From: an uncultured actinomycete
GTDB lineage: Bacteria; Actinomycetota; Acidimicrobiia; Spongiisociales; UBA5794
NCBI GenBank assembly: GCA_942491345.1
Contig: CALOAN010000021.1
Coordinates: 261,355 to 325,354 of the forward strand
Length of the DNA stretch: 64,000 nucleotides
Reading direction: 5' to 3'
The position numbers and the translations under genes are program-made. Shown piece after piece: positions 24,153 through 64,000 of the stretch; within the stretch, counting starts at the first letter, position 1; every line of letters begins with the position of its first letter. The notes beneath the pieces are model-generated. The model was given only the letters and a program-made list of their open reading frames with translations. It was not told the DNA's origin and did no database searches.

Positions 24153-25676
24153 GTGGACGATCATTTCTCACTCTATGGGAACAGCCTGAAGCCGTCATAC
24201 ACCAAGCGAGCCCGCCGATGGCAGCAGATGTTCATCGACAAGTTCTCGTACGACCCGGACGAGCAGTACGAACTCACGCTCTTCGACAACGAGTACCTTG
24301 GTTCGGTCTTCGGTCTTCAGGACATCCGCCGGAGCGGCGAGGGGGAGCCGATCGACCCGTCGAACGGCGTCATCTGTGCCACCGTGAGGATGGGCTTCGG
24401 GCACTACCGCATCGCGATGGCGGGCGCGTCGTGTGCGAAGGCGATGGGCTACACCCCCTACTGGCTTGACCTGCTGGCGATTCCGGGCATCACGTCGGAC
24501 GTAATCAACTGGTGGAACACCGGCTACAGCCGCTTCTCACGGGTCTCGCAGCGGAGCAAGCTCTTCAACCAGTACGTATGGGAACCGGTCACGACCGGCG
24601 ACCGCACGCTGCCCGGCCTGTGGTGGGCGCTCAATGCATTCGCCGTGGGCTGGCCCTGGCGATTCATCAAGGCCAACGCCAGGGACTATCGGATGAGCGA
24701 GCTGTTCGCGAATCTCCACCGCGGCCTGCCGTCCGAGACTCCTCTCCTTGGGTCGCACATGTGGAATTCGATGGGCGCCGTGGCCGGTGGGATGACCAAC
24801 GTCGTCGACATGATGTTCGACAACTGGCCGATGGCCTTCCAGCTGATCGAGGGGGCGAGCCATGCCGTGCAGTCACCTTCCGGCTACTACGGCTTCCGGA
24901 CGATGCGCGGCTTCGACGAGAAGAACAGCATCTTGAAGCCGGTACCGAGCGATGCGCTCACCTACGTCGGCCACCACGTTGACCATGAGCTGGTCGAGAA
25001 CATCGAGGTTGACTGCGCTCGTCGGATCGAACGGATGGAGAGCGGTGAGCCGCGTCGGTTTCTCTTGACGATGGGTGGGGCGGGAGCGCAGCGGGATCTC
25101 TTCCAGGCGATCATCGAGCACGTGCGCCCGATGGTCGATGCGGGCGAGGCGACCCTATTTGTGAACCTCGGCGATCATGCTGAGAACTGGGAATGGCTCC
25201 AGGAGGAGATGGGCAGCGACTCCAAGGACGTCCACACCCACTTCACGTGGAGGGACACGCAGGCCTTTGCCGATGAGATTCGCATTGGACCCGCGGAAGG
25301 CATCCACGTGTTCCTGTTCGACAACACCTTCCATGCCGTGTACTCCACGAACTACCTGATGCGGGTGGTCGACGTTCTCATCACGAAACCGAGCGAATTG
25401 GCGTTCTACCCGGTCCCCAAGATCTTCAACGAGCGGGTCGGCGGGCATGAGGCCTGGGGCGCTATCCGTTCCGCAGAACTCGGCGACGGCACGGTGGAGA
25501 TGCGGTCGATCCCTGAGACACTCAACGCGATCGATCTGATTGCCGGTGAGGAGGATCTGCTGCGCATGTACTGCGACTCGATCATCAAGAACAAACACAT
25601 CGGGATCTACGACGGCGCCTATCACAGCGTGGCGCTCGCCACGGGAACAACCTGGGAGCGTCCGGCGCCGGATTAG
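24153..25676 (+). CDS. GT-B-fold glycosyltransferase-like protein (MGDG-synthase/UgtP-like), function unknown
   Basis: VRMGFGHYRIAMAGA, LLTMGGAGAQRD and VLITKPSELAFYPVPKI resemble the N- and C-terminal motifs of the diacylglycerol glycosyltransferase family. GTG start at 24153 with an AGGAGG RBS. Family assignment is tentative. Confidence 0.45.
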   Translation: MDDHFSLYGNSLKPSYTKRARRWQQMFIDKFSYDPDEQYELTLFDNEYLGSVFGLQDIRRSGEGEPIDPSNGVICATVRMGFGHYRIAMAGASCAKAMGYTPYWLDLLAIPGITSDVINWWNTGYSRFSRVSQRSKLFNQYVWEPVTTGDRTLPGLWWALNAFAVGWPWRFIKANARDYRMSELFANLHRGLPSETPLLGSHMWNSMGAVAGGMTNVVDMMFDNWPMAFQLIEGASHAVQSPSGYYGFRTMRGFDEKNSILKPVPSDALTYVGHHVDHELVENIEVDCARRIERMESGEPRRFLLTMGGAGAQRDLFQAIIEHVRPMVDAGEATLFVNLGDHAENWEWLQEEMGSDSKDVHTHFTWRDTQAFADEIRIGPAEGIHVFLFDNTFHAVYSTNYLMRVVDVLITKPSELAFYPVPKIFNERVGGHEAWGAIRSAELGDGTVEMRSIPETLNAIDLIAGEEDLLRMYCDSIIKNKHIGIYDGAYHSVALATGTTWERPAPD

Positions 25677-36398: not shown

Positions 36399-37012
36399 CA
36401 GTCGGTGCTGTTCTTCGTCGGCGTAGCGATTCCGTTCATCAGCACCTCGACGCTTTCCTGAATCGACGGCTTTTCGTCGGATGAGATCAGAGGATGTGCC
36501 GTGGCGAAGACGAATCCCCGGAACGCAATCGCCGCCTGATGTGGACTGACGCGGATCTCGTTGCGGTTCCGTTCGAACAGTGTGGTCAGCGCGCGGAGGA
36601 TTGCGGTGTTCGCGTCCATGACGTATTGGCGGGCGCCCGACGGGGGGCCGCCGGCGTGCGAACCCGATGCCCGAAGCACTCCGATGAGGGCGGCGACCCG
36701 TTCCGAGCGTTCCACGAGGATGCGTGCTGCGGTTTCGAGTTGGTTGGCGAGAGGTGTCGTCGGGGGAATCGCCGCGATGGCCTGCTGGATCTGATCCGGG
36801 TCCATGCCGGCTTTGACGGCTTCGTGAATCACCGATGACTTGTCGGGAAAGACACGAAAGATGGTCCCTTCGGCGATACCGGCCGCTTCGGCCATCTCGC
36901 GCGTGGTGACGGCAGGTCCCTTCTCCAAGAAGAGGGGGATCACTGCCTCGACGATCGCCCGACGACGGTCGTCGGCCGGGAGCGGTTCTGCACGTTCATG
37001 TCGTGTGGGCAC
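36398..37012 (-). CDS. TetR-family regulator, first gene of the ABC exporter operon
   Basis: RRAIVEAVIPLFLEKGPAVTTREMAEAAGIAEGTIFRVFPDKSSV. I chose the GTG start at 37012, just downstream of the palindrome; the ORF maximum is 37210. Confidence 0.75.
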   Translation of the reverse strand: MPTRHERAEPLPADDRRRAIVEAVIPLFLEKGPAVTTREMAEAAGIAEGTIFRVFPDKSSVIHEAVKAGMDPDQIQQAIAAIPPTTPLANQLETAARILVERSERVAALIGVLRASGSHAGGPPSGARQYVMDANTAILRALTTLFERNRNEIRVSPHQAAIAFRGFVFATAHPLISSDEKPSIQESVEVLMNGIATPTKNSTD

Positions 37013-39874: not shown

Positions 39875-40433
39875 GAGACTTGAGACACGAGACTTGAGAC
39901 ACGCGTCGGACCTCATGTTCGTGATCCGAGCTCCCAGGCCGCCCCCTCTGCGACCGGACTTGCGTCCGGCCGCGTCTCCCCCACTACGTGGTGGAGACAA
40001 AGGCCCGGGCCGCCCCCTCCCGCCCTCGCTGCGCTCGGGCACCCTGGCAGCGGGCCTCATCTGCGCGATTCTGGCTCCCAGGCCGCCCCCTCCCGCCCTC
40101 GCTGCGCTCGGGCATCCTGGCAGCGGGCCTCATCTGCGCGATTCTGGCCCAGGCGCCCCCCCCGCCCTCGCTGCGCTCGGGCATCCTGGCAGCGGGCCTC
40201 ATCTGCGCGATTCTGGCTCCCAGGCCGCCCCCTCCCGCCCTCGCTGCGCTCGGGCACCCTGGCAGCGGGCCTCATCTGCGCGATTCTGGCTCCCAGGCCG
40301 CCCCCTCCCGCCCTCGCTGCGCTCGGGCACCCTCCCCCACCTTCGGTGGTGGAGGGGAGAAGCGGAGGGTTTTCGCCTCTCCCACGGAGTGGGGGAGGTG
40401 CGTCCGGCCAATTGCCCGGACGCGGAGGGGGCT
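39875..40433. repeat. Largest copy of the GC-rich mosaic element (14-bp doublet, X module, H1 hairpins, 73-bp array, H2 palindrome)
   Basis: gagacttgagacac x2 (39875-39902); H1 at 39974-39998; 73-bp array; cUUCGg-looped hairpin at about 40333-40356; CGTCCGGCCAATTGCCCGGACG; ends with cgcggagggggct (40421-40433). Confidence 0.8.
40008..40333. repeat. 73-bp tandem repeat, about 4.5 units
   Basis: Units start at 40008, 40081, 40152, 40223 and 40296. Units 2 and 3 are 71 nt (two 2-nt deletions). Unit = ggccgccccctcccgccctcgctgcgctcgggcaccctggcagcgggcctcatctgcgcgattctggctccca. Confidence 0.85.
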
Positions 40434-40451
40434 CTGTCGAAAGAGCGGCTT

Positions 40452-42916
<2,465 letters not shown>

Positions 42917-43894: not shown

Positions 43895-45233
43895 TCAAGT
43901 CTTGGCGGCCTCGAACCTTCGGAGGGTGATCTCTCGCGCCTCGGCATGGTCGATCATCGGGTAGGGGTAGTCCTCGCCGAGGGTGATACCTGCTGCGGCG
44001 GTCTCGAGCGGACGTTCCCACGGGGCATGGATCCCAGGTCCGTCGAGTGACGCCAATTCCGGGACGTACCTCCGGATGTATGCACCATCCGGATCAAACC
44101 GGCGGCTCTGGGCGACCGGATTCATGATGCGAAAGTAGGGGGCCGCGTCGGCGCCGGTGCCCGCCACCCATTGCCAGTTCCCGACGTTCTGCGACGTGTC
44201 GGCGTCGATCAGGAGGCGCCGGAAGTGGCGTTCGCCGATCCTCCAGTCGATGCCGAGATCCTTGACCAGGAACGAGGCCGTGACCATGCGCACACGCCCG
44301 TGCATCCATCCTTCGGCCACGGAGCTGCCGCATGCCGGCGTCGACCATCGGATAGCCGGTCCTCCCGTCCTTCCACGCACGGACCGCTTCGCCGTCGTCT
44401 TCCCACACGATCGAAGCGAGATCGTCACGGAAGGAGTGGTCGACCGAGTGTGGAGCGTGGAAGAGGACCTGAGCGTAGAAGTCGCGCCAAGCGAGCTGGC
44501 GCACAAACGCCTGCCGACCGTCGGTCGCCGTACCCACGTGTTCGGCGACGGTGCGAGCCGCGACCGTCCCGAACTTCAAATCGGCCGAGAGGTGAGAGGT
44601 CCGGTCGAGGTCCGGCCGATTGCGGTCCGCCTCGTAGCCGTCGACGACCTCGAGGAATCGCTCCAGCCGCTCGCGTGCGCCGACCTCGCCCGGGGCCGCG
44701 ACCGGTGATTCCACGGGAGGGAGTTCGATACCACCGTGTGCGATGATCGTGGCCTGGCCTGCCTGTGGCCACGGTTCGACCGGTGTCTTGCTCCAGGAGC
44801 GGTAGTACGGGGTGAACACCCGGTACGGCGTGCCGCCGCCCGTCATCACCGTTTCCGGTGCTCGTACAACGTTGCCGTCGTACGTTTCGATTGGCGGTCC
44901 AGTTCCTGCGGCGACATCGGCGTCACGCCGTTGGGAGAACGGCGTGTAGTCGCGATTCCAGTACACCGCGTCATGCCGGCGGGCGACGGCGGGGACCACC
45001 AGTTCCGGGTCGCCGGTCTCCACCGTGAGGCTGCCGCCCAGGCGCCGGAGTTCCGCGTCGAGCGCGTGGAGATGGGCGAACAGCAGATCTCGCCGAAGAT
45101 CGCCTGCGGTGGCGAGCAGGCGCCGGTCGAGGACGAACAGTGCCGCCACTTCATCGTGGTCGAGAGTTGCGGCAGCCCACGCCGGATTGTCCGCAAGGCG
45201 GAGATCCCGCCGGAACCAGACCAGCGAACTCAC
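43895..45233 (-). pseudogene. phr: Deoxyribodipyrimidine photolyase, reading frame broken by a +1-nt shift near 44312-44322
   Basis: The N-terminal frame reads VWFRRDLRLADNPAW...GYPMVDAGMRQL. The conserved continuation GWMHGRVRMVTASFLVKDL...NWQWVAGTGADAAPYFRIMNP is in another frame (ORF 43895-44506). Total length is 1 mod 3. GTG start overlaps the upstream stop (GTGA at 45230-45233). Confidence 0.8.
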
Positions 45234-46714
45234 TCGAGGCCGTCTTCGACCACCGGAGCCGCAGAAGATATGCGGTCCCTGAGTTCGGCCGTCGCAGCAA
45301 TCCGGCGGGCCATGTTCCCAAAGATGAACGCATGGAAGGGGAGGAGTGCATACCAGTAGAGGCGACCGCTGAGTCCCCGCGGCCGGAAATAGGCGTTCTG
45401 GTGAAGCACGGTGACGTCGCCGCTGCGCTCTGTGCTCCATTCCAGCCACGCATCGCCCGGAAGCCGCATCTCAGCAGAGAGTTGGAGCCAGCGGCCTGGT
45501 TCGACGGCGGTGACGCGCCAGAAGTCGACGGTGTCCTCGAGGCGGACGTCTTCCGGATGGCGGCGTCCACGCCGGAGCCCGACGCCGCCCATGACGATAT
45601 CGAGGATCCCCCGCAGCCTCCACGCCCAATCGAAGCCGTGGTAGCCGACGTCTCCGCCAATCCGTGCGAACGACCAGAACACATCCGCGGGGTCTGCTGT
45701 TGTTGTTGCGGTCTGGTGATCCACGAACAAGCTTCCACCGCTCCAGGATGGGTCTCCTTCGAATCGTTGGGCTGGGCCCGTTGTTGCATCCGACCACCGG
45801 GTGTCGACGCTGAGATCTGTGCTGTGCTCGAGGGCCCGTTCAATGGCCGTGTCGAGCGGAGTCGGCCCGATGCCGAATTGGACGTGTGCCGCGTCGCGCG
45901 AACGACGACCTCGTTCTTGAGCGAGTCGACCAGGGGCCGGGCAACTCCAACGGGGAGCGGGGTCACGAGTCCGATCCAGAGTGACGAAAGGCGCGGGGTG
46001 AGCACGGGAACCGGAACGACGAATCGGACGCGGAAGCCCCGCCACCCGCGCATACGCTTGCATCATGTCGAGGTAAGAGAGCACCTCGGGCCCGCCGATC
46101 TCGTACACCGTGTGACCTGGGGTTGTCTCGTTGAGACATGCAATCAGGTAGAGGAGTACGTCGCGAATGGCGATCGGCTGGCATCTGGTCTGGACCCACG
46201 ACGGGGTGACCATGGCCGGCAGCACCTCGGTGAGGTAGCGGAGCATCTCGAACGAAACGGATCCGGATCCGATGATCACCGCCGCACGTAGTTCAGTGAC
46301 GGGAACCGGTCCTGAAGCGAGGGCTCGGCCAACTTCGTGCCGGCTGCCGAGATGTGTGGAAAGGCGGTCGTCCTCGTCACCAAGCCCTCCGAGGTAGACG
46401 ATGCGTTCCACACCGGATTCCGCTGCCGCTTCGGCGAAGTTGGTTGCGGCGATCCGGTCTGTGTCCCGGAAGCTGTCGGCGCTGCCCATCGAATGGATGA
46501 GGTAGTAGGCGACATCGCATCCGGCGAGAGCATCGACCAGAGTGTCGGGCTGGAGGACGTCTGCCGTCACCGCTTCAACATCGTCGCTCCACGAGCGACC
46601 GGCGAGCTTCGCCGGGTTGCGAACTGGACAGACAACTTCGTGTCCCTCGGCAAGCAGCCGCGGGACAAGCCTGCCTCCGATGTATCCGGTTGCGCCCGTG
46701 ACGGCGATTCTCAT
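45230..46714 (-). CDS. NAD(P)-binding SDR/NmrA-like domain fused to DUF2867; contains an internal compensated double frameshift
   Basis: MRIAVTGATGYIGGRLVPRLL.... The ORF stays open, but the family-typical RFVVPVPVLTPRLSSLWIGLVTPLPVGVARPLVDSLKNEVVV (45901-46026) is encoded in a different frame. Confidence 0.7.
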   Translation of the reverse strand: MRIAVTGATGYIGGRLVPRLLAEGHEVVCPVRNPAKLAGRSWSDDVEAVTADVLQPDTLVDALAGCDVAYYLIHSMGSADSFRDTDRIAATNFAEAAAESGVERIVYLGGLGDEDDRLSTHLGSRHEVGRALASGPVPVTELRAAVIIGSGSVSFEMLRYLTEVLPAMVTPSWVQTRCQPIAIRDVLLYLIACLNETTPGHTVYEIGGPEVLSYLDMMQAYARVAGLPRPIRRSGSRAHPAPFVTLDRTRDPAPRWSCPAPGRLAQERGRRSRDAAHVQFGIGPTPLDTAIERALEHSTDLSVDTRWSDATTGPAQRFEGDPSWSGGSLFVDHQTATTTADPADVFWSFARIGGDVGYHGFDWAWRLRGILDIVMGGVGLRRGRRHPEDVRLEDTVDFWRVTAVEPGRWLQLSAEMRLPGDAWLEWSTERSGDVTVLHQNAYFRPRGLSGRLYWYALLPFHAFIFGNMARRIAATAELRDRISSAAPVVEDGLE

Positions 46715-46868
46715 GGTGGCCTCTCTTCCGACGGTACTACGAAGCTACGGCACCCGTTGGATCGGCGTGGCACGTCGACGCGTCGTGAGGAAAGTTAACA
46801 CTAAATCTCATCCAGTCGACGTGGCGGTTCCGTACATAGGACAGTCAACCCCAAAAAGGAGGGGCAGA

Positions 46869-47660
46869 ATGAAGAAGCTCATTGCGGTATTCGCCGCAAC
46901 CCTTATGACTCTGGCGATTGCAGCACCCGCAATGGCTCAGAGTGAAACACGTATCCACCTGATTCACGGAATCCCGGATACTCCCGTTGATGTGATCGTA
47001 GATGGAGAAGCGGTGTTCACCGACTTCAACTTCGGCGATACACAAGATCTGTCGTCACTCGCTGGCGCAACGTTGGTCGGCCTCCAGGTCGTCGTCGCCG
47101 GCACCGACACTGTTGCGATTGACGCTGGTGATGTCGATCTTCCTGCTTCGGGCAACTACTCGATCATCGCGAACCTTGACGCTTCGGGCACCCCGACGCT
47201 GACGGTGTTCGAGAATGACACTTCTGCGATCGACGCCGGTAACGGCCGCCTGCAGGTTCGTCACACCGCTGCCGCTCCGGCCGTGGACGTGAAGGCCGAC
47301 GGCGCGGTTGCGTTCAGCAACCTCAGCAACCCGAACGAGGCGAAGGCTGACCTTCCCGCCGCTACCTATAGCGTCGAGGTGGTCCCCACCGGAGCCGATG
47401 AGCCGGTTGTGATTGGCCCAGCCGACATCGCCCTTCCTGACGGCACGTCGCTGATCGTCTACGCAGTTGGTTCGCTCGATGACGAGACGCTGACCGTGTT
47501 GACCGAGTCGATCACCGGTCTTGGCGCCGCTCCTGCGGCCGTCGAAACCGGGAACAGCCCTGTTGAAAGCGGCATCTCGATGACCGCTGTCGCCGGCATG
47601 CTGGTGATCGCAACCGTTGCAGTTGGCGGAGGTCTCACCCTCGCCCGCCGCTCGAGCTGA
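46869..47660 (+). CDS. Secreted DUF4397 protein with C-terminal sortase-type sorting signal (AVETG + TM + RRSS)
   Basis: AAGGAGGGG RBS. Signal peptide ...APAMAQS. Repeated DUF4397-type beta modules. The C-terminus is PAAVETGNSPVESG-ISMTAVAGMLVIATVAVGGGLTLA-RRSS. Confidence 0.75.
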   Translation: MKKLIAVFAATLMTLAIAAPAMAQSETRIHLIHGIPDTPVDVIVDGEAVFTDFNFGDTQDLSSLAGATLVGLQVVVAGTDTVAIDAGDVDLPASGNYSIIANLDASGTPTLTVFENDTSAIDAGNGRLQVRHTAAAPAVDVKADGAVAFSNLSNPNEAKADLPAATYSVEVVPTGADEPVVIGPADIALPDGTSLIVYAVGSLDDETLTVLTESITGLGAAPAAVETGNSPVESGISMTAVAGMLVIATVAVGGGLTLARRSS

Positions 47661-55115: not shown

Positions 55116-55346
55116 CCATTCCGCGGGCCCACAGCGCCGTATGCGGGGTGGAGAACCCTGGGTACGCAGCGCCACCCATTCCGCGGGCCCACGGCGCCGT
55201 ATGCGGGGTGGAGAACCCTGGGTTCGTGATCAGCCATTCCGCGGGCTGACGGCGCCGTATGCGGGGTGGAGAACCCTGGGTTCGCAGCGCCACCCATTCC
55301 GCGGGCCCACGGCGCCGTATGCGGGGTGGAGAACCCTGGGTTCGTG
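55116..55346 (+). repeat. 60-nt tandem repeat, 4 units (family shared with 7734-7853)
   Basis: Units start at 55116, 55176, 55234 and 55294. The array lies about 100 nt upstream of the heliorhodopsin ATG. Confidence 0.85.
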
Positions 55347-55448
55347 GACTACCTCGCGCGCGATCGCGGTAAGGTGCAGCCTCACCGGAGTTGGCGCGTC
55401 GACTGGAGTGCCTCTCCGTTGCTGTCACATCGATCTCGGGAGGGCCCA

Positions 55449-56213
55449 ATGGTCTCAAAAGTTGAAGTAACCGACGCTGACTTCAGTCGACTCAGAACGT
55501 ACAACTGGGTGATGGGCGGCCTGCATCTTCTCCAGGCAGTCTTGGTCCTGGTGCTGGCAACCGACTTCACGCTGCCGGTGACCGGAACGTTCCCTGAGGG
55601 ACCCCCCGGCAGCCCCTCGGAGACGGTCACGCTGTTCGAGCTCTCGATCGCCTGGGGCGTCGCCGCCTTCTTGTTCCTCTCGGCGCTGTTCCATTTCATC
55701 GTGGCGAGTGTTGGGGCGGGCCGCTACCGCGACCAGTTGTCCCGTGGACAGAACCAGTTCCGATGGATCGAATACTCGCTGTCGTCATCGATCATGATTG
55801 TTCTCATCGCGATGCTGACGGGGATCTCCGGTATCGCCGCCATCCTTGCTCTGTTCGGGGTCAACGCCGGCATGATCTTCTTCGGATCCGTCCAGGAACG
55901 GTATGAGGCCCCCGGTGGCTCCTTGTGGCCATTCTGGCTCGGTGTGGTCCTCGGCGTGGTGCCGTGGATCGCCATCGGTATCTATCTGGTGTCCCCCGGA
56001 AGTGATGCACAGCCTCCTGGGTTCGTCTACGGAATCTTCTTCTCGTTGTTCGTGTTCTTCAACACCTTCGCTATCAACCAGTGGCTGCAGTACAAGGAGG
56101 TGGGGCGCTGGCGCAACTATCTGACCGGCGAACGCACCTACATCCTCTTGAGCCTCCTGGCGAAGAGTCTCCTTGCCTGGCAGGTCTTTGCGGGAACCCT
56201 CGCAGGGACGTAG
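55449..56213 (+). CDS. Heliorhodopsin
   Basis: Collinear with heliorhodopsin 48C12 as I remember it: GGLHLLQ, LSALFHFIV, NQFRWIEYSLSSSIMIVLIA (counterion Glu), FVYGIFFSLFVFFN, SLLAKSLLAWQVFAGTL (Schiff-base Lys). Confidence 0.9.
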   Translation: MVSKVEVTDADFSRLRTYNWVMGGLHLLQAVLVLVLATDFTLPVTGTFPEGPPGSPSETVTLFELSIAWGVAAFLFLSALFHFIVASVGAGRYRDQLSRGQNQFRWIEYSLSSSIMIVLIAMLTGISGIAAILALFGVNAGMIFFGSVQERYEAPGGSLWPFWLGVVLGVVPWIAIGIYLVSPGSDAQPPGFVYGIFFSLFVFFNTFAINQWLQYKEVGRWRNYLTGERTYILLSLLAKSLLAWQVFAGTLAGT

Positions 56214-56266
56214 GAGCACAGACCCGAGCAGGACGGGGACGACAACGCAGGGGCCGAGAGGACGCG

Positions 56267-56302
56267 GAGAAGGGGCCGGCTGACTGGCACCGGCCCCTTC
56301 TC
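56267..56302. terminator. Bidirectional terminator hairpin between the heliorhodopsin and fasciclin genes
   Basis: GAGAAGGGGCCGG-10 nt-CCGGCCCCTTCTC followed by tcctatct. Confidence 0.65.
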
Positions 56303-56345
56303 TCCTATCTCCGGTGCGGGTGAATGGGCCCCGCAACGGTGACTG

Positions 56346-57416
56346 TTAGCTCGCCGGAACGAGCACTGCGTCGATGACGTGGATGACGCCGTTGCTGGCC
56401 AGCACGTCGGCCGTGACGACGGTTGCCACGTCGTTGATCACGACACTTCCGTCGACCACTGCGATCGCCACGGTGTTCTCCTCGTAGAGCGTGGGGACGT
56501 CCGCAGGAGCGATCTCGATGACGTCGGCGGCCAGGAACTCGCCGCTCACCACGTGGTACAACAGGATGTTGGCCAGGTCGGGATTGGCAAGGAGCTCTTC
56601 GGCGGTCACACCGAGTTCTTCGAGCAGTGCTGCGAAGGCTTCGTCAGTGGGAGCGAAGACCGTGAACGGACCTTCGCCGTTGAGCGCGTCAACCAAACCG
56701 GCGGTCTCGAGTGCTGCGAGGAGCACAGTGAACTGTGCCGGGTCGCCGGCGGCCGCTTCGACGACGGTCTCGGAGATCGTCAGCTCCATGGCCTCGGTGG
56801 TCGTGGTCATTGCTTCGGTTGTGGTGGTGGTCTCTTCTTCCATAGGTTCTTCGGCCATGGCTACGCCGAGGGCTTCGGCGATGTCCGGCGGAAGCAGGAC
56901 GCCGTCGATGACGTGCACGATGCCGTTGTCGGCGATGAGGTCGGCAGAGACGACCGTCGCTTCGTTGATCATGATCTGACCGTCGACGACGCTGATGGCG
57001 ACTTCCTGGGGGTTAAGGGTGGCAACAGAGCTGCCATCGAGGGTCGCGACCAACTGCGAGTCGGCCTCCTGGCCCAGTACGTGATAGAGGAGGATCGCCG
57101 TGAGCGTCTCCGTGTCGGCGAGCAGTTCTTCGGCTGTGATGCCGAGCGCCTCGAACGCGGCTTCGAAAGCGGCGTCGGTGGGTGCAAGAACTGTGAACGG
57201 GCCCTCACCCTGCAGGGTCTCGCTGAGACCGGCTGCATCGATGGCCGCAATGAGCGTCGAGAACTGACCGGCTTCAATCGCGAGATCAAGTACCGAAGTG
57301 TCCGCTACGGGTTCCGCCGCGGTCGTTGTGGTTGTATCGTCGCTGTCGCTGCTGCACGCTGCCACGATCATGGCGAAGGCAAGCAGGAGAGCGAAGAACG
57401 AAAGTCGTTTCCTCAT
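56346..57416 (-). CDS. Lipoprotein with two fasciclin (FAS1) domains
   Basis: Lipobox VAAC. The pattern GPFTV(L/F)APTD(A/E)AF...H(V)V/IDGVLLP/IDAVLVP occurs twice. Confidence 0.85.
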   Translation of the reverse strand: MRKRLSFFALLLAFAMIVAACSSDSDDTTTTTAAEPVADTSVLDLAIEAGQFSTLIAAIDAAGLSETLQGEGPFTVLAPTDAAFEAAFEALGITAEELLADTETLTAILLYHVLGQEADSQLVATLDGSSVATLNPQEVAISVVDGQIMINEATVVSADLIADNGIVHVIDGVLLPPDIAEALGVAMAEEPMEEETTTTTEAMTTTTEAMELTISETVVEAAAGDPAQFTVLLAALETAGLVDALNGEGPFTVFAPTDEAFAALLEELGVTAEELLANPDLANILLYHVVSGEFLAADVIEIAPADVPTLYEENTVAIAVVDGSVVINDVATVVTADVLASNGVIHVIDAVLVPAS

Positions 57417-57437
57417 GAAATTGATGTCCTTTCAGAC

Positions 57438-57449
57438 TTACTAATAAAT
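57438..57449. promoter_or_regulatory. AT-rich box 1 (TTACTAATAAAT) in a divergent promoter region
   Basis: Near-identical copy at 57566-57577. A TCTGCActcTGCAGA inverted repeat is adjacent (57450-57464). Confidence 0.3.
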
Positions 57450-57565
57450 CTGCACTCTGCAGACATCGGATATACGAAGCAGGTGTCGCGGTTGGATGAC
57501 GGGAGACTCGATTCTTGACCGTTCTCGCCAGAAGGTGTTTCTCGTGACGGGCCCAACCTGCTATC

Positions 57566-57577
57566 TTACTACTAAAT
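57566..57577. promoter_or_regulatory. AT-rich box 2 (TTACTACTAAAT) abutting the regulator start
   Basis: 11/12 identity with box 1. Such AT-rich 12-mers are rare in this GC-rich sequence. Confidence 0.3.
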
Positions 57578-57579
57578 GG

Positions 57580-58407
57580 ATGACACGAAACCCGAAGAAG
57601 CTGAGCCTGCACGAGGTCGCCGAGATCCTCGACGTGCACTACATGACCGCGTACCGGTATGTCCGGTTGGGAATCCTCCCTGCGCGACGCGAAGGTCGGA
57701 GCTGGCGAATTCATCGCGACGACCTCGATGAGTATCTCTCGAAGGATGAGCCCCGCACGCAACGGGGTGAGGCCGACTGGGGCGACCGCTTCTTCAATCG
57801 AGTCCTCGCCGCCGACGAGGCAGGGGCGTGGGGGGTTGTCGAAGCGGCGCTCAGCTCCGGGATGACGATTCCCGAGGCGTATCCCACCCTGCTCGCTCCG
57901 ACGATGCGTCGTATCGGCGAGCTGTGGGCGACCGGCGAGGTCGATATCGCGAACGAGCACGCCGCCTCAGAGGTGGTATCGAGGATCGTCGCGAGACTCG
58001 GACCGCGTCTGGCACGTCGCGGGGTTCGGCGGGGTACCGTGGTGCTCGGTTCGACGGCGACCGAACTCCATTCGCTTCCGCTTGCCATGGCGACAGATCT
58101 CTTCCGAGCCGCGCAGTTCGAGGTCGTGGACCTCGGCGCCTATCTTCCGCCCAAGTCTTTCGCTGCATTTGTTGCCGACATAGATGACCTTGTTGCCGTC
58201 GGAGTCGGCGTGACCATGCCCGGTCAGGCGGACGAAATCCGCAAAACGCTCGTCGCCATCCGTAACGTCACCGACGTCCCGATTGTCATCGGCGGTGGCG
58301 GGGTTGATGAGGCAGCCGCACTCGAGCTCGGTGCCGACGGGTGGGCTCAAACCGGAGACGAGGCAGTTGAGCTGGTGGAGGCGTTGCTCGAGCCCTTCAA
58401 AGCCTGA
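57580..58407 (+). CDS. CarH/LitR-like B12-binding photoreceptor-regulator with excisionase-type HTH
   Basis: N-terminus LSLHEVAEILDVHYMTAYRYVRLGILPARREGRSWRI (HTH_17-like). Helical bundle with W-x9-EH (WATGEVDIANEH). Rossmann B12 domain LGSTATELHSLPL...VGVGVTM...IVIGGGG. Confidence 0.8.
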   Translation: MTRNPKKLSLHEVAEILDVHYMTAYRYVRLGILPARREGRSWRIHRDDLDEYLSKDEPRTQRGEADWGDRFFNRVLAADEAGAWGVVEAALSSGMTIPEAYPTLLAPTMRRIGELWATGEVDIANEHAASEVVSRIVARLGPRLARRGVRRGTVVLGSTATELHSLPLAMATDLFRAAQFEVVDLGAYLPPKSFAAFVADIDDLVAVGVGVTMPGQADEIRKTLVAIRNVTDVPIVIGGGGVDEAAALELGADGWAQTGDEAVELVEALLEPFKA

Positions 58408-58428
58408 GTTGGTGCGACCGACAACCGC

Positions 58429-59653
58429 TCAGAGTGCGATGGCCGGCGGCGGTTCAGCGATTCCGGGCTTCCGGTAGACCGCCTGAACTCCGTCGATCCG
58501 CCCGCTCCGGAACCCGGCGATGCAGTACGCCAAGTAGTAGCGCCACATCCGATAGAAGCGCTCGTCGAACCGATCCGACTGCGGCGATTTCCGGCCACGC
58601 GGCAACGAAGCGCTCGTCCCACGCTTGGAGCGTTCGTGCGTAGCTGGTCCCGTGGGTCGACAGGCCGATCCATTCGAGGCCGGCGTTGTCGCCGAGCCGG
58701 CGAAGGATCTTGGTCGAGGGGAGTGCACCACCCGGGAAGATGTAGGAGCGGATGAACTCCTCGCGGCCGATCATCTGGAGGTGGAGATCATGGTCGATGG
58801 TGATGACCTGGAGGGCAGCGGAACCTCCTGGAACGAGTGAGCGGCTGATGACGTCGTACAGATCGACCCAGGCTTCTTCGTTGATCGACTCGATCATCTC
58901 GATCGAGATCACCCGGTCGAACTCGCCTTCGATGTCCCGGAAGTCGGTCAACAGAACCTCGACACGATCCTCGAGGCCCGCCTCCTTCATTCGCCGGACC
59001 ACGTAGTCGTGCTGCTCGTGCGAGATCGTGACCGCGGTGACGGTGCATCCCAGCTCGCCTGCGGCAAACTCCGCCATCGCTCCCCACCCACACCCGATCT
59101 CGAGGACGCGGTCGCCGGGTTGGATCCCGGCACGAGCGGCGATGCGTTCGTACTTGGTACGCATCGCCGACTCGAGGTCGTCGCCGTTGCTGAAGATGCC
59201 GGATGAGTAGCTCATCGACGGGTCGAGCCAGGCCGCGTAGAACTCATTGCCGAGGTCGTAGTGCTCGACCATCGTGCGGACTGCGGTTGTCCCGGTGGAG
59301 CCTCGCAGGCGATCCCATGCGGTCCGAGAAGTCCGCATCGCTGTTTCCCACACGGCGGTATGGCGTCGGCGGTCGTGGTTGTCGGCTGCGAACTCGAGAA
59401 GCCTCGCGAGGTCGGTCGTGTCCCACAGTCCGTCGATGTAGGCCTCGGCGAAGCCGACACCACCGGTGCGCAGCACGCGGCGCGCCACGGCGTCGGCGTC
59501 GTGGATGCTGATCGACGCTTCGAGTCCGGGCTTCGAACCCACGATGTCAACCGTCGAGCCTTCGACGTCGGCATGCAGGGTGCCGGCGCGCACAAGACGG
59601 CGCAGCACCGTTGGCATGCTGCGTACGAGTCGGGATGGTGCTTCGTCGGTCAT
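58429..59653 (-). pseudogene. Cyclopropane-fatty-acyl-phospholipid-synthase-family SAM methyltransferase, C-terminus frameshifted near 58570-58590
   Basis: VLEIGCGWGAMAEFAA (SAM motif). The main frame ends in non-family sequence, and the conserved tail FDERFYRMWRYYLAYCIAGFRSGRIDGVQAVYRKP is in ORF 58429-58731. Length is 1 mod 3. Confidence 0.8.
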
Positions 59654-60429
59654 GCGGCCATTTTGGTCGCGACCGAGACCTCGTCAACCGGCGCGGCGGG
59701 ACGCTTCCGATATCGGGCGCCCTTGACCCAGAGTTTGGCGGCCTCCCAATGGATGGCGGCCATGATCTTGAACGTGATCAGCGGATACCGCACGGTGGCA
59801 CCGAGCAGGCTCTTCGACGTCAGCGGCACGCGTCGACCGGCGAGTGTTGCTGTGAATACGGTCTCGTCTTCGACTTCGTAGGTGATCACCACGGAGATTC
59901 GGTCGGCGGGTTGTGAGATGCGCACGCGGTATCCGCCTTCGACGTCGAAGAACGGAGAGACGAAGAACTCCTTGCGGAATCCGTGTTTGTGGTGGTCGCT
60001 CTCGTCGACTTCGACGAGGTGGGAGTGGGCTTCGCCGAACGTGTTGTGGATCTCGTAGAGGATCCAGCGTGGAGCACCTCTCGCGTCATCGATGAACCAC
60101 ACCGTGAGGGGGTTGAACTCGTATCCGGCGATCCTGGGCAGGCACAGCAGGCGAATCCGGCCGGGAGTTCCGTCGAATCCTGACGTGTTCAGCTTCGCTG
60201 TGATCCACTCCCGCAGGTTGCCACCGTCGCGTGCCCCGTGGTCCTGGTCGAAGAAGCTGATGAGGTTGGTCCTGTTGTGTGAGAAGAACGGCATATGCGC
60301 CAGCTCATCGAGTTCGTCGAGATCAACGAGCAGCGAGAAGAGACCGTATTGGAGGCGGTGCTCGAACGGCTTGCGGCGGACGTGCGTCGTGGTGCCTTCG
60401 TAGATCGCGGAGTTGGTTGCGGCTTTCAT
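59650..60429 (-). CDS. DUF1365 family protein
   Basis: IYEGTTTHVRRKPFEHRLQYGLFSLLVDLDEL...GYEFNPLTVWF. ATGA overlaps on both sides. Confidence 0.8.
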   Translation of the reverse strand: MKAATNSAIYEGTTTHVRRKPFEHRLQYGLFSLLVDLDELDELAHMPFFSHNRTNLISFFDQDHGARDGGNLREWITAKLNTSGFDGTPGRIRLLCLPRIAGYEFNPLTVWFIDDARGAPRWILYEIHNTFGEAHSHLVEVDESDHHKHGFRKEFFVSPFFDVEGGYRVRISQPADRISVVITYEVEDETVFTATLAGRRVPLTSKSLLGATVRYPLITFKIMAAIHWEAAKLWVKGARYRKRPAAPVDEVSVATKMAA

Positions 60430-61742
60430 ACCTGAACCAGCGTATCCGCCGGCGCGCTGTGAATCGCGGCCGGAGTGGCGGGGGTGATGTCGTCGTGCCA
60501 CGGGGCAGGTGAGCCGAGGGCTGCCGCCACCGTGAGGCCCGACTGCAATCCGTCCTCATGGAACCCATACCCGGTCCATGCGCCGCAGTACCAGATTCCG
60601 TCCCGACCCTGGATCTCCGGCAGGCGCTGCTGCGCCCGGTCGGTGTCCGGATTGAACTGCGGATGTGCGTACCAGATGTCGTCGATGATGTTCTCCGGAT
60701 CCTGTGCAGGATTGAGCGAGATGAACACGTCGTGGTTTGGGTCGAGGTTCTGAAGGCGGTTCATCCAGTACGTCACCGAAATCGGCTGCGCCGAACCTGC
60801 CGGGGTGCCGACGGCGTTCCATGCCGACCACGCGGCCCTGCGACGCGGCATCACGGATGGATCGCGATGTACCACCGCACGATTGGGGGCATATCGGAAC
60901 GTGCCGAGGATGGAGCGTTCGTCGTCGCGTACATCGTCGCCGCGGAGACGGAGTGTCTGCGGGGCGTGGGTGGCCATCACCACCTCGTCGTACCGTTCGG
61001 AACCCTCCGGTGTGGTGACCTCGACTCCACCGTCGACGCGCCGGACGGCGGTGACTTCGACGCCGGTGCGTACCACAGGAATCTCTTTGGCGATGCGCTC
61101 GACATACTCGCGACTGCCTCCGGTGACGGTCCGCCAACGCGGCCGCTCGAGTTCGAAGAGGCCGTGATTGGCGAGGAAGTGCAGGAACGTGCCGACCGGC
61201 ATGGATGCTGCATCGGTACCCGCGCCGGACCAGACCGCTGCGGCGAGAGGGAGGAGGTAGTCCGTGATGAACGGCTCGGGATAGTCGCCATCCCGCAGGA
61301 ACTCGATGAGTGTGGCATTGGGATTCGGGATGCTGTCGTAGGCGCCCACCTGCTTGCGGAACCGGTTGATGCCGCGAAGGATCGCCCACGTGCGACGCGA
61401 TGCGAGGTGCTGGGGACTAGAAAGCAGCGCACCAGGCGTTGGTGCGAATTCGAAGCGGCCGCTCTTCACCGAGAACGACATGTCGGTTGCCTCGGTCGCT
61501 ACGCCGAGCGTTTCGAAGAGATGCGTGAGGTTCGGGTAGTTGCGGTGGTTGAAGACGATGAAACCCGTGTCGACCGGTGCCAGCTGTTCGCCCATGGTCA
61601 CGTCGATGGTTCGGGCGTGTCCGCCCAGGCGAGCTTCGCGCTCGAGCAGCGTGACATGGTGGTTTTGGCCCAGCGCCCAGGCGGCGCCGAGGCCGGTGAC
61701 GCCCGATCCGATGACGGCGATCTTCTTCGATGTGGTTCTCAT
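60426..61742 (-). CDS. NAD/FAD-binding oxidoreductase (amine-oxidase/COG2907 type)
   Basis: KIAVIGSGVTGLGAAWAL...LLEREARLGGHA dinucleotide fold. The start is either 61742 (ATG) or 61763 (GTG). Confidence 0.8.
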   Translation of the reverse strand: MRTTSKKIAVIGSGVTGLGAAWALGQNHHVTLLEREARLGGHARTIDVTMGEQLAPVDTGFIVFNHRNYPNLTHLFETLGVATEATDMSFSVKSGRFEFAPTPGALLSSPQHLASRRTWAILRGINRFRKQVGAYDSIPNPNATLIEFLRDGDYPEPFITDYLLPLAAAVWSGAGTDAASMPVGTFLHFLANHGLFELERPRWRTVTGGSREYVERIAKEIPVVRTGVEVTAVRRVDGGVEVTTPEGSERYDEVVMATHAPQTLRLRGDDVRDDERSILGTFRYAPNRAVVHRDPSVMPRRRAAWSAWNAVGTPAGSAQPISVTYWMNRLQNLDPNHDVFISLNPAQDPENIIDDIWYAHPQFNPDTDRAQQRLPEIQGRDGIWYCGAWTGYGFHEDGLQSGLTVAAALGSPAPWHDDITPATPAAIHSAPADTLVQV

Positions 61743-61847
61743 GACGCTAGGAGTACGGACCACATCGGGAATGCGGATGACCGGTCATCCGGATGCCGGG
61801 CGAGATCCGAAGATGGGGTATCACCAACCGAGATCTGAAAGGCCACC

Positions 61848-62309
61848 ATGCCCGTCATCACCGAATCCGTAGAAACCGATCTTCACATCGAAGCCACCTT
61901 CGACTATGTGGCTGACTTTGAGAACATCGTTGAGTGGGACCCAGGGGTGACCGCCGTTCGAAAGATGTCCGACGGCCCTGCCGCCGTGGGAACCGCATAC
62001 GAACTCAACCTGAACTACGGAGGGTCACCTCTGTCCATGGTGTACCGCATCACGGAGTGGGATCCTCCCCGGAGAGTGGTGCTCGAAGGCGACGGTTCCC
62101 GGAGTTTTGCGATCGATCGGATCTCGTTCTTGCCAACGGCGACGGGGACCGTAGTCGAGTATCAGGCCGACATTCGCCTGAAGGGCGTCTACCGCGCCGC
62201 TGAACCGTTCCTCGGAAAACTCTTCCGCAGAGTTGGCGATGGCGCCCGCGAGGGCATGGAAAACCGCCTTCGGGAACTTGCAGCAGAAGCAGCAGAAGAG
62301 GGCAACTGA
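61848..62309 (+). CDS. SRPBCC (START/polyketide-cyclase-like) protein
   Basis: The size and the pattern FDYVADFENIVEWDPGV...YRITEWDPPRRVVLEG are typical of SRPBCC ligand-binding proteins. Confidence 0.7.
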   Translation: MPVITESVETDLHIEATFDYVADFENIVEWDPGVTAVRKMSDGPAAVGTAYELNLNYGGSPLSMVYRITEWDPPRRVVLEGDGSRSFAIDRISFLPTATGTVVEYQADIRLKGVYRAAEPFLGKLFRRVGDGAREGMENRLRELAAEAAEEGN

Positions 62310-63287
62310 TGGCTCTGACCACCGATGGGGTGCTCGAGGGATCGATCGTCGGGAGTTTCACGAATTTCGGCTACCGGATTCGGAGCCGGGACTGGGAGGA
62401 TTCACTCGCAGAGATGCCCGGCGCGACTGCCGTCATCACAGGGGCTACCTCCGGGATCGGGCTCGCGGCGGCGAAACGAATGGCCGGCCTCGGTGCTCGT
62501 GTCGTTCTGATTGGTCGCAATACCCAGAAGCTCGAGGCGGCGGTGAAGGAAGTGTCTGCCGATGCGGAGAACGAAGCCGTCGGCTATCAGGCGGACCTGT
62601 CCTCGCTCGATGAGGTCCGTCGGCTTGCCGATGAACTCCTGGCGGGGGAGGAGCGGATCGACGTACTCGTCAACAACGTGTCCGTCCTGGCTCCCGAACG
62701 GACGATGAGCGTCGACGGATTCGAACTGACGCTCGCCACCAACCTCCTGGGCGCCTTTCTCCTCACGAACCTGCTGATTCCCCGAATGGTGAAGAGCGCA
62801 CCCGCACGGATCATCACGGTGTCGTCCGGCGGCATGTACACCGAGGGCCTCGATATCTCCGGCTTGGAGATGAACGCCGAGGAATATGCGGGTGCCGCCG
62901 CGTATGCCCGCACGAAACGGGCGCAGGTGATCCTCACGGAACTCTGGGCCGATCTGCTGGCAGGGACTGGTGTGGTTGCTCACTCGATGCATCCCGGCTG
63001 GGTGAACACACCCGGTGTCGCCGCCTCACTCCCGACGTTTCCGCCGAGTTATGGGCCCGCTGCTGCGTAATGCGGATCAAGGAGCCGACACGATCGTCTG
63101 GCTGTCGGCCGATTCGGATGCACTGGAGTCTTCGGGGGATTTCTGGATGGACCGACTGCCGCGTTCGAAACATCGGTTGAAGCGGACTGAAGCTGGAGAC
63201 GCCGAGACCGATCTCCTTTGGGAGTTCCTCAGCGATGCTACCGGCTGGGTTCCGCCCGACGGGTGGCCGAATTCAGAGAGTTCCTGA
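62309..63287 (+). pseudogene. Short-chain dehydrogenase (retinol-dehydrogenase-like SDR), frameshifted near 63041
   Basis: TGATSGIGLAAA, NNVSV, YARTK (YxxxK). After ...ASLPTF the family-typical tail RRVMGPLLRNADQGADTIVWLSA... continues in ORF 63015-63287. Length is 1 mod 3. Confidence 0.75.
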
Positions 63288-63718
63288 TGGCGATGGTCGT
63301 GGTCGAGATCGATCTGCCGTTTCCGGTCTCAGAGGTGTGGGACGAGCTTTCGAAACTCGAGCGCCACGCCGACTGGATGATGGACGCGGAGCGGATCGAC
63401 TTTGCAAGCGGACAGACGCGCGGGGTCGGGACCGAGATGAAGGTACGCACTCGTGTAGGCCCGTTCGTGACCGAAGATGTCATCGAGGTCCGCGAGTGGA
63501 CCGAGGGGAAGAGTATCGGCGTCTCGCACCGCGGACTCGTCACCGGCGTTGGTGTGTTCATCCTCACCCCAATCGAAGGCGGGACCCGCTTCGTCTGGTG
63601 GGAAGACCTGGAGTTCCCGTGGTACCTCGGTGGCCCCATCACCGCCTGGTTCGCCGCCCCCGTCCTGAAGTGGATCTGGAAAGGCAACCTGAACCGGTTC
63701 GCAAAGACGCTGAGGTAG
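63287..63718 (+). CDS. SRPBCC family protein
   Basis: MAMVVVEIDLPFPVSEVWDELSKLERHADWM.... The start overlaps the SDR stop by 1 nt. Confidence 0.7.
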   Translation: MAMVVVEIDLPFPVSEVWDELSKLERHADWMMDAERIDFASGQTRGVGTEMKVRTRVGPFVTEDVIEVREWTEGKSIGVSHRGLVTGVGVFILTPIEGGTRFVWWEDLEFPWYLGGPITAWFAAPVLKWIWKGNLNRFAKTLR

Positions 63719-63745
63719 AGCCGGTCGCTCGTCGGTTCCGGCGGC

Positions 63746-63945
63746 GGACCTCATTGTCGTGATTCTGGGTCCCAGAGCCCCCTCTGCGACCAAGCATCAG
63801 CTTGGCCGCGTCTCCCCCACCTGACGGTGGGAGAGACGAAGACAGTCTTTGCCCCACCACGCAGTGGGGGGGAGGCGCGTCCCGGGCAATTGCCCGGACG
63901 CGGAGGGGGCTGTTCTTGCCGCAAGGCCGGAGTGCAGAGGAGGGG
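63746..63945. repeat. GC-rich mosaic element copy with terminal inverted repeats
   Basis: gacctcattgtcgtgattc...AGCCCCCTCTGCG ... H1 hairpin 63809-63838 ... AAGACaGTCTT ... CGTCCcGGGCAATTGCCCGGACG ... CGCGGAGGGGGCT (ends 63911). The right boundary is approximate and may run to the window edge. Confidence 0.75.
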
Positions 63946-64000
63946 GGTAGGTTGCGTTGCCCCTGCTGCCACTGCGTTTCGGGGTATTTCGCGCACGGGA

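Follow-up and report, generated by a model that had tools for sequence, protein, structure and literature searches.

Gene content of the heliorhodopsin island

The window studied here, i.e., the whole stretch of 64,000 nt (63% GC) at positions 261,355-325,354 of contig CALOAN010000021.1 (GCA_942491345.1), belongs to an uncultured actinomycete of the acidimicrobiial lineage UBA5794. It harbors an island in which a heliorhodopsin (HeR) gene is accompanied by genes for a FAS1-domain lipoprotein, for a regulator with predicted cobalamin (B12)-binding domains and for two divergently oriented groups of enzymes. Gene calls were checked by Pfam and NCBIfam profile scans of the open reading frames (ORFs) in the window. 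All nine island genes listed by an initial annotation, made from the nucleotide sequence, were recovered at their positions, and the same scans bore out the photolyase and SDR-DUF2867 genes placed approximately 10 kb upstream. The relevant features are as follows; scores of candidate operators refer to a position weight matrix (PWM).

55449-56213, plus strand: HeR, 254 aa, intact (PF18761, NCBIfam HeR equivalog)
56346-57416, minus strand: lipoprotein with two FAS1 domains (Pfam Fasciclin x2, lipobox)
57436-57449: candidate operator site 1, ACTTACTAATAAAT, 22 nt before the FAS1 start codon (18.4 bits)
57564-57577: candidate operator site 2, TCTTACTACTAAAT, 2 nt before the ATG of the regulator gene (22.3 bits)
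57580-58407, plus strand: regulator, 275 aa (PF12728, PF02607, PF02310)
58438-59653, minus strand: CFA-synthase-family SAM methyltransferase (UfaM/RSP1089-like), frame broken (CMAS, 222 bits)
59650-60429, minus strand: DUF1365 protein (UfaO-type family), intact (PF07103, 256 bits)
60426-61763, minus strand: FAD amine-oxidase-family oxidoreductase (UfaD-like), intact, first gene of its operon (PF01593, PF13450)
61774-61791: perfect 18-bp palindrome CGGATGACCGGTCATCCG in the divergent promoter region between the oxidoreductase and SRPBCC genes
61848-62309, plus strand: SRPBCC (Polyketide_cyc2) protein (Pfam)
62309-63275, plus strand: SDR (PRK06197-like, approximately 320 aa if intact), frame broken (adh_short)
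63287-63718, plus strand: second SRPBCC protein, start set by homology to locus L161
43898-45233, minus strand: DNA photolyase, frame broken (Pfam)
45230-46714, minus strand: SDR(NmrA-like)-DUF2867 fusion, intact, 494 aa (Pfam, single-frame alignment to locus L006)
46793-46806: candidate operator site 3, AGTTAACACTAAAT, in the spacer from which SDR-DUF2867(-photolyase) and DUF4397 diverge
46869-47660, plus strand: DUF4397 secreted protein, divergent from SDR-DUF2867 (Pfam)

HeR is preceded by a ribosome-binding site (GGGAGGG), and its product scores 331 bits against PF18761 (cutoff 26.7) and 322 bits against the NCBIfam HeR model NF038020 (cutoff 100). Alignment to HeR 48C12 places H26, H82, E108 and K239 opposite H23, H80, E107 and K241 and thereby bears out an intact protein with Schiff-base lysine, glutamate counterion and both conserved histidines. 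The closest relatives stem from metagenome-assembled genomes (MAGs) of Acidimicrobiia. The neighboring FAS1 gene is convergent with HeR and divergent from the regulator gene, and two Fasciclin matches plus a lipobox (...IVAAC) agree with its description as a two-FAS1-domain lipoprotein. On the minus strand, the genes for the FAD-oxidoreductase, the DUF1365 protein and the methyltransferase are joined by two ATGA overlaps, while the SRPBCC-SDR-SRPBCC genes form the divergent operon on the plus strand; both operons stand as originally described. Crt or blh families were not found in the approximately 60 window ORFs scanned, in line with the earlier statement that the window holds no retinal-synthesis gene.

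The start coordinate first assigned to the island, 55116, has to be corrected, as it is that of a REP-like tandem repeat outside the system. This GC-rich 60-bp element (core CATTCCGCGGGCCCACGGCGCCGTATGCGGGGTGGAGAACCCTGGGT) forms a 3.8-copy array at 55116-55344 upstream of HeR and recurs in two copies at 7735-7816 in another intergenic region. Relatives contain zero to two copies; one is located inside the FAS1/regulator spacer of locus L082 (2650-2760), and L084 and L085 have none. A function as regulatory array of HeR was considered and ruled out on the grounds of this dispersal, the occurrence at unrelated sites and the absence from L084/L085. The element appears to be mobile or expanding and is not HeR-specific.

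The regulator combines an excisionase-type DNA-binding domain with a predicted light-sensing cobalamin module

The regulator consists of an excisionase-type helix-turn-helix (HTH), a four-helix-bundle B12-binding_2 domain with a Wx9EH motif and a Rossmann-type B12-binding domain with His164. The HTH matches HTH_17 (PF12728, 54 bits) and the NCBIfam excisionase model TIGR01764 (44 bits, cutoff 28.8), and none of the MerR models in the Pfam and NCBIfam scans, PF13411 included, was matched. The Wx9EH motif reads W-ATGEVDIAN-EH (WATGEVDIANEH) and occurs together with E-L-H; W116, E126 and H127 do not vary among 25 members of the family, nor among the HeR-linked orthologs described below. His164, located in the Rossmann domain (PF02310, 46 bits), is invariant in the family, its surroundings being T-E-L-H-S-L-P in the clade of the window and G-E-R-H-G-L-G in orthologs from HeR operons. 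A search for the family returned 1372 matches, always with the architecture PF12728, PF02607, PF02310, that are named "excisionase family DNA binding protein," "B12-binding domain-containing protein" or, occasionally, "MerR family, light-induced transcriptional regulator" in the source.

Among proteins of known structure, the best sequence matches are photocobilins (8J2W/X/Y; 3e-14) and CtMerR from Chloracidobacterium thermophilum (8JBS/8JBT; 9e-12), the closest solved relatives of the sensor module, followed by Thermus thermophilus CarH (TtCarH, 1e-4); corrinoid proteins and methionine synthase are also among the matches. An AlphaFold (AF2) model (pLDDT 90.8) superposes in Foldseek on light-sensing cobalamin-binding domains (CBDs) at 1.8-2.9 Å and over its full length on TtCarH (5C8D/E/F), and in this model the HTH appears similar in fold class to that of TtCarH despite its excisionase assignment. 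CtMerR and the photocobilins belong to "group 2" of the light-responsive cobalamin domains found by SignatureFinder, and their light response has been verified experimentally (PMC11796333); in the photocobilins a bilin-binding or GGDEF output domain takes the place of the HTH. According to the same work, second-group domains of the GxxW/EH/GxxH type are green-light-responsive and can be fused to HTH domains, and the Wx9EH/His signature separates light-responsive from enzymatic CBDs (PMC11796333). The initial classification as a CarH-type regulator thus holds for the Wx9EH motif, the B12 domains and the predicted light-sensing fold; it does not extend to the HTH, which is of the excisionase type, nor to the CarH equivalog model NF052513 (TransRegCarH), which fails with 44.3 bits against a cutoff of 400. 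Judged from sequence signature and structural model, the protein very probably works like CarH without being a CarH equivalog.

HeR and the B12 regulator are neighbors in many species

Two samples of loci served for comparison. The first consisted of 80 HeR loci from Acidimicrobiia, other Actinomycetota and Chloroflexota, one genome per species and each with an HeR at least 57% identical to that of the window, which were searched with the island proteins. The second, reverse sample consisted of 80 metagenomic loci anchored on the regulator, six of which come from close relatives that share the gene order of the window.

A protein with a Wx9EH cobalamin domain is encoded within 10 kb of HeR at 17 of the 80 species-level HeR loci. 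Fourteen of these proteins are orthologs of the window's regulator with 39-44% identity and a near-invariant HTH (GVHYMT-YR-VRLG); the other three are a canonical MerR-CBD protein (L079), a CBD-XRE protein (L073) and a CBD combined with an unknown domain (L029). Most linked orthologs share the strand of HeR and follow its stop codon at a distance of 0-60 nt, and FAS1 immediately precedes HeR; the usual order is FAS1, HeR, regulator, often with SDR-DUF2867 behind. HeR and regulator genes are translationally adjacent in 12 or more species, and FAS1, the first gene of this operon in other lineages, lies directly 5' of HeR in 11 or more (FAS1 genes upstream of HeR: L006, L011, L016, L023-L025, L028, L031, L039, L041, L135, L142). 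Unbiased protein clustering of HeR neighbors at the 80 loci gave SDR (16), the regulator (14), a generic ABC ATPase (13), FAS1 (11) and SDR-DUF2867 (10), which makes the regulator the second commonest cluster after SDR; SDR-DUF2867 adjoins HeR in 10-11 of the 80 species. Conversely, of the 80 loci sampled around the regulator, 11 include HeR, 13 the methyltransferase/Ufa-like operon and 6 photolyase. The order HeR/FAS1/regulator/Ufa-like is kept in relatives whose regulator identity falls to 79% (L161) and 61% (L086). The linkage of HeR with a B12 regulator, claimed initially from the single window, thus goes beyond chance in both sampling directions; it recurs in many species of two phyla, often within one operon, and is evolutionarily conserved.

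Other island genes recur around HeR as well. Locus L022 has the order SDR, FAD-oxidoreductase, DUF1365, methyltransferase, HeR, photolyase, and L073 has FAD-oxidoreductase and DUF1365, then SRPBCC, HeR and photolyase, in addition to its CBD-XRE regulator, such that photolyase directly follows HeR in both. In L040 and L077 the order is FAS1, HeR, SRPBCC, SDR, which is also found in the short locus L049, where FAS1 was not detected. SRPBCC genes recur beside HeR, SDR and FAD-oxidoreductase at other loci, and the DUF4397 gene is a repeated divergent partner of the regulator elsewhere. An ORF in L022 that appeared to fuse HeR and photolyase was discarded as an out-of-frame artefact of high-GC DNA, the photolyase starting approximately 110 nt after HeR.

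The association is not wholly new. Cobalamin-binding proteins and DNA photolyase have been named among HeR neighbors, with the same families also occurring near proton pumps (Chazan et al., bioRxiv 10.1101/2021.02.16.431466), and the ten frequent partners in HeR operons named by Kim et al. (2024; PMC11109279) include a MerR-family regulator, photolyase and SDR. In our literature search, we found no paper that names the partner as a B12 photoreceptor, defines its operator or joins HeR to Ufa-type photo-oxidative genes.

The regulator family is also found beside genes for the error-prone polymerases ImuB/DnaE2 (9 of the 80 regulator loci), ECF sigma factors (14) and RskA-type anti-sigma factors (9); examples are L148:11470-13341, L062:12070-15603, L154:4094-4693 and L144:954-1697. 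These neighbors suggest a wider light/UV-damage regulon with a cascade resembling LitR-LitS.

A conserved palindrome is the candidate operator

The spacer between FAS1 and the regulator gene contains two AT-rich boxes that are similar to one between SDR-DUF2867 and DUF4397. The derived pattern matches three times in the 64 kb (0.01 expected), always in promoter regions of the island. Since this count is circular within the window, the independent loci were searched with the looser pattern TTANNANTAAAT. Exact matches to this pattern occur at 47 sites in 2.0 Mb, compared with approximately one expected from base composition, and most are intergenic and situated just upstream of island genes; the consensus is a 14-bp palindrome, ATTTAG(T/C)ACTAAAT. 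In terms of operons, PWM matches precede FAS1 in 12 of 17 cases, ECF sigma genes in 11 of 13, the regulator gene in 26 of 66 and DUF4397 in 4 of 7; the rate for HeR-containing operons is 9/75, and all others (16/789) give a background of approximately 2%. The palindrome is present in operons in which the B12 protein is the only regulator, and in L010 and L012 it is found just upstream of HeR though no regulator is encoded nearby.

In the six close relatives, both sites of the FAS1/regulator spacer are kept, whereas the intervening sequence has diverged and even gained insertions; the core CTACTAAATG of site 2 is invariant, and the position of site 3 is also occupied in L161. The arrangement relative to the promoter is conserved in 15 or more species as TTGACA-N6/8-palindrome. 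In Chloroflexota the layout is TTGACA-N6-ATTTAGTGCTAAAT-ACT, with the palindrome filling the spacer into a -10-like AATACT at the optimal spacing of 17 nt, and in Acidimicrobiia it is TTGACT/TTGACA-N8-palindrome. This overlap with TTGACA-N17 promoters, read from the sequences, is the geometry typical of a repressor site, unlike that of a MerR-type activator with its over-long spacer. A literature search for the palindrome sequence returned unrelated primers only.

Site 2 (region 57564-57582) ends 2 nt before the regulator ATG, too close for a ribosome-binding site to fit in between, which suggests a leaderless transcript or a roadblock-type site.

The candidate operator is common to the FAS1/regulator and the SDR-DUF2867(-photolyase)/DUF4397 promoter regions of the window, but none precedes HeR or the Ufa-like and SRPBCC operons. 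One light regulon covering all six elements of the island, as initially proposed, is therefore not shown here.

Ufa-like, SRPBCC-SDR and photolyase genes

The operon downstream of the regulator resembles genes for furan fatty acid synthesis. In the singlet-oxygen regulon of Rhodobacter sphaeroides, RSP1091 (UfaD), RSP1090 (UfaO, DUF1365) and the CFA-like RSP1089 match it, and R. palustris has the set UfaD-UfaO-UfaM (PMC7380195); the initial statement about Rhodobacter is hence borne out. The DUF1365 protein matches PF07103 over its full length and agrees with UfaO at the domain level. The FAD-oxidoreductase may correspond to UfaD, an FAD-dependent fatty-acyl desaturase of the amine-oxidase type whose gene directly precedes that of UfaO: its Pfam matches (Amino_oxidase, NAD_binding_8) and gene order fit, and NCBIfam yields only weak matches to other FAD enzymes. 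Its ortholog in L022 is 48% identical and has the same gene order. The methyltransferase belongs to the CMAS family, is frame-broken and so does not represent an intact UfaM; it may equally be the counterpart of RSP1089, which is dispensable for furan fatty acids (PMC7380195).

The divergent promoter region upstream of this operon contains the palindrome CGGATGACCGGTCATCCG, of which GGATGA...TCATCC is partly conserved in the acidimicrobiial loci L082, L083, L086 and L087. It is distinct from the candidate operator of the regulator and a candidate site for a second regulator. A reading as ECF-type promoter was not convincing, and the element is left unassigned. An ECF sigma/RskA pair is absent at the end of the window, where L161 has one after the second SRPBCC gene; L163 has such a pair divergent to the regulator, and the only ECF sigma gene in the window is an unrelated one at 665-1390. 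A LitR-LitS-type ECF pair behind the operator was not found in the window's island. The photolyase start overlaps the SDR-DUF2867 stop codon, and the photolyase is probably transcribed on the SDR-DUF2867 transcript.

Four genes of the system had been reported as frame-disrupted. This applies to the methyltransferase, the SDR and the photolyase; SDR-DUF2867 is a single intact frame of 494 aa that aligns in one piece to L006. Compared with three intact relatives from other metagenomes (L081-L083), the methyltransferase gene lacks 2 bp between 58582 and 58581, a deletion which puts its last approximately 50 codons, together with the C-terminal part of the CMAS profile match, into another frame, as also seen in the frame switch of tblastn. 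The SDR frame is broken near 63040 with a switch from frame 2 to 3 relative to L049 and L161 (intact, 327 aa), and the photolyase frame near 44350 by one extra base after MRQL, the L161 ortholog being one gene of 445 aa. On the 493-kb contig of L161, methyltransferase (408 aa), SDR (327 aa) and photolyase are intact, and SDR/DUF2867 is split. Roughly 30 genes in the first 42 kb of the window gave full-length Pfam matches without disruption; that all three disruptions fall into light-related genes has a rough probability of approximately 0.007 under a uniform indel model. The window and L161 both look like long-read assemblies.

Relation to known light-responsive systems

CarH/class I LitR proteins of Thermus thermophilus, Myxococcus xanthus, Streptomyces and Bacillus megaterium are adenosylcobalamin-dependent repressors that are released by light. 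The regulator shares with them the combination of a DNA-binding domain, a four-helix Wx9EH bundle and a Rossmann-domain histidine, the full-length structural match, and a candidate operator that overlaps the promoter; autoregulation is likely. It differs in its HTH_17/excisionase domain and its weak similarity to TtCarH. The operator of Thermus CarH consists of tandem direct repeats and not of a 14-bp palindrome, and the candidate targets in the window and its relatives are FAS1/HeR, SDR-DUF2867-photolyase and ECF sigma genes rather than carotenoid genes. The ECF sigma gene adjacent to the regulator in some relatives recalls LitR-LitS of Streptomyces. For CtMerR, neither DNA target nor regulon is described and no link to a rhodopsin is reported (PMC11796333).

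In Pseudomonas, class II LitR (PplR/PmlR) controls genes with the same functions as those in the window, namely phrB, ufaM, SDR and FAD-dependent oxidoreductase, with LitR acting as effector of a LOV photoreceptor (PMC9758184). This confirms the initial statement on LitR-type control over phr and cfa-like genes in this genus. Unlike the regulator of the window, however, the proteobacterial class II LitR lacks a Rossmann B12 domain and needs the separate LOV photoreceptor, and its cluster contains neither a rhodopsin nor a FAS1 gene. The ChrR/sigma-E operon RSP1091-1087 of R. sphaeroides (UfaD, UfaO, CFA-like, unknown, SDR) can be likened to the window by domains and gene order, an SDR lying nearby here as well, whereas its control is exerted by an ECF sigma/anti-sigma pair answering singlet oxygen, and the window's methyltransferase is frame-disrupted.

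HeR function has been debated since 2018, and the few partner proteins known each come from a single organism. The operons TfHeR-photolyase, AbHeR-glutamine synthetase and OcHeR-OmrDE likewise place HeR beside proposed partners; here, in contrast, the conserved partner is a predicted photoreceptor-regulator with a shared cis-element. Partners in the same operon have been shown experimentally for glutamine synthetase, photolyase and an ABC transporter (PMC11109279).

A model for the island and its alternatives

We favor, as a reasonably probable interpretation, that the island is the acidimicrobiial version of a LitR/CarH-type light-induced photoprotection island governed by a dark repressor at the palindrome. 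The regulator would most likely bind adenosylcobalamin and, in the dark, occupy ATTTAG(T/C)ACTAAAT as an oligomer, covering the spacer and -10 element of sigma-A-type promoters and repressing transcription; green light would photolyze the cofactor and release the regulator. The two operators in the FAS1/regulator divergent promoter region would provide autoregulation, and the third would act on the promoters between SDR-DUF2867(-photolyase) and DUF4397. HeR would be light-induced together with the regulator in Chloroflexota and other Acidimicrobiia, where the operator lies before operons of the order FAS1, HeR, regulator. In the window's lineage FAS1 would have been inverted, with HeR keeping its neighborhood and using a promoter of its own without operator. 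HeR itself is probably a light-dependent helper of enzymes acting on photodamage, such as photolyase; HeR is reported to bind and stimulate photolyase (PMC9769723, as cited in PMC11109279). The Ufa-like and SRPBCC-SDR-SRPBCC operons would represent co-located photo-oxidative-stress genes under probably indirect control, for instance via the ECF sigma/anti-sigma pair, which in relatives is preceded by the operator, or via another factor at their own palindrome. We infer a two-tier scheme resembling Streptomyces LitR-LitS, with the regulator acting on itself, FAS1(-HeR) and ECF sigma, and sigma or another factor acting on the enzymes.

Several observations weigh against this interpretation. In the window, no site was detected upstream of HeR, the Ufa-like operon or the SRPBCC operon or directly at photolyase (PWM scan down to 9 bits), and over all loci the motif stands directly before none of 12 FAD-oxidoreductase and none of 5 photolyase operons. 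The palindrome has been assigned to the regulator from co-occurrence alone. The regulator has an excisionase-type HTH and falls below the cutoff of the CarH equivalog model, and in the window's clade the canonical glycine after the histidine is replaced by proline. The linkage is not universal: such a regulator is missing from the vicinity of HeR at approximately 63 of the 80 loci, and approximately 1.6 Mb separate the two genes on one contig of 2.7 Mb. The three disrupted genes may indicate a decaying system under relaxed selection on the light response or, alternatively, indel errors of the assembly. Finally, HeR mRNA was found to rise in the dark in a transcriptome from another actinobacterium (PMC8591293), which is not known to possess the operon.

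Some of these observations would also fit an adjacency in the window that is a historical remnant, with HeR on its own promoter serving only as a helper of photolyase-like enzymes and the island genes being controlled separately. This alternative, which we regard as possible but doubtful, draws on the absence of a candidate operator 5' of HeR in the window and its six close relatives, on the other conserved proximal promoter region (TTGACT...) found there instead, on the inversion of FAS1 relative to the common operon and on the separate palindrome of the Ufa-like operon. The preservation of gene order down to 61% regulator identity, on the other hand, argues for selection on proximity, and HeR does lie behind the operator in other lineages.

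FAS1, HeR and regulator might moreover form a self-contained light module, in which green light controls expression through the B12 regulator, HeR in the membrane is a second sensor (green/yellow) that signals to this regulator or to co-induced repair enzymes, and the extracytoplasmic FAS1 lipoprotein binds carotenoids or retinoids and supplies the chromophore. Among FAS1 proteins, small-ligand binding is known only for the algal AstaP, a carotenoid-binding protein induced by photo-oxidative stress (PMC10147662), and by analogy a role of the bacterial FAS1 protein in chromophore handling is conceivable. The similarity of the FAS1 protein to AstaP (E 2e-17) was rejected as evidence for carotenoid binding, generic fasciclins matching equally well. 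We consider such a module unlikely; if real, its three parts would provide an output partner and a chromophore supply for an HeR whose genome neighborhood is without retinal-synthesis genes.

Quite unlikely, in our estimate, is a two-chromophore signaling unit in which HeR is the upstream membrane sensor and the regulator an effector bound or released by light-activated HeR. The translational adjacency of the two genes follows the pattern of the experimentally shown HeR operon partners, and a LitR-family effector has a precedent in the short LOV protein and class II LitR of Pseudomonas mendocina (PMC9758184). The regulator, however, keeps all residues of the self-sufficient cobalamin light signature, which makes a second sensor unneeded, and 69 of the 80 regulator loci have no HeR.

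That the regulator senses cobalamin availability or redox state, or that the palindrome belongs to another factor such as an ECF sigma factor, appears very improbable. Cobalamin domains do occur in non-photoreceptors, as the matches to corrinoid proteins and methionine synthase illustrate, and ECF sigma genes, for which autoregulation is common, often have the motif in front of them. Against this stand the Wx9EH/His signature that distinguishes light-responsive CBDs (PMC11796333), the overwhelmingly light- or UV-related neighbors (photolyase, HeR, Ufa-like, ImuB/DnaE2), the overlap of the palindrome with sigma-A-type -35/-10 elements and its presence where the B12 protein is the operon's only regulator. 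A purely accidental meeting of HeR and B12 regulator, for which one could cite that most sampled HeR genes are not beside such a regulator, is practically negligible given 17 cobalamin-domain genes in approximately 1.2 Mb around the HeR of 80 species, where one to a few per genome are expected, and given a gene order and a shared operator that recur in two phyla.

Under the favored interpretation of a light-induced photoprotection island, HeR looks like a light-induced member of a photodamage regulon, a notion that becomes directly testable. The analysis provides the recurrent operon partner of HeR that is itself a predicted photoreceptor-regulator, a predicted operator sequence with its promoter geometry and a list of genes predicted to be co-controlled (FAS1, SDR-DUF2867-photolyase, DUF4397, ECF sigma). 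HTH type, operator and the membership of HeR and FAS1 set the island apart from known LitR/CarH photoprotection regulons. For the large family of putative excisionase-HTH cobalamin photoreceptors, this is a first regulon model with a candidate DNA target and a probable regulon, and such regulators may serve as green-light switches.

Further features of the window

Two neighboring half-transporter genes for ABC exporters, each with ABC_membrane and ABC_tran domains, are located at 32671-36995 on the minus strand, 18 kb from HeR. The pair is of the heterodimeric multidrug type, i.e., of the same class as the HeR-modulated OmrDE of another actinobacterium. A 73-bp tandem repeat (4.6 copies, 95% matches) at 40004-40333 lies in or beside an ORF without Pfam match (39925-40731). 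A DUF6937-DUF6938 protein of 606 aa is encoded at 23856-25673 on the plus strand between galactokinase/epimerase genes and an acyl-CoA dehydrogenase-like gene. The region 3' of the second SRPBCC gene (63720-64000) is non-coding and contains many short GC-rich hairpins of the GCGTCCGGGCAATTGCCCGGACGC kind.

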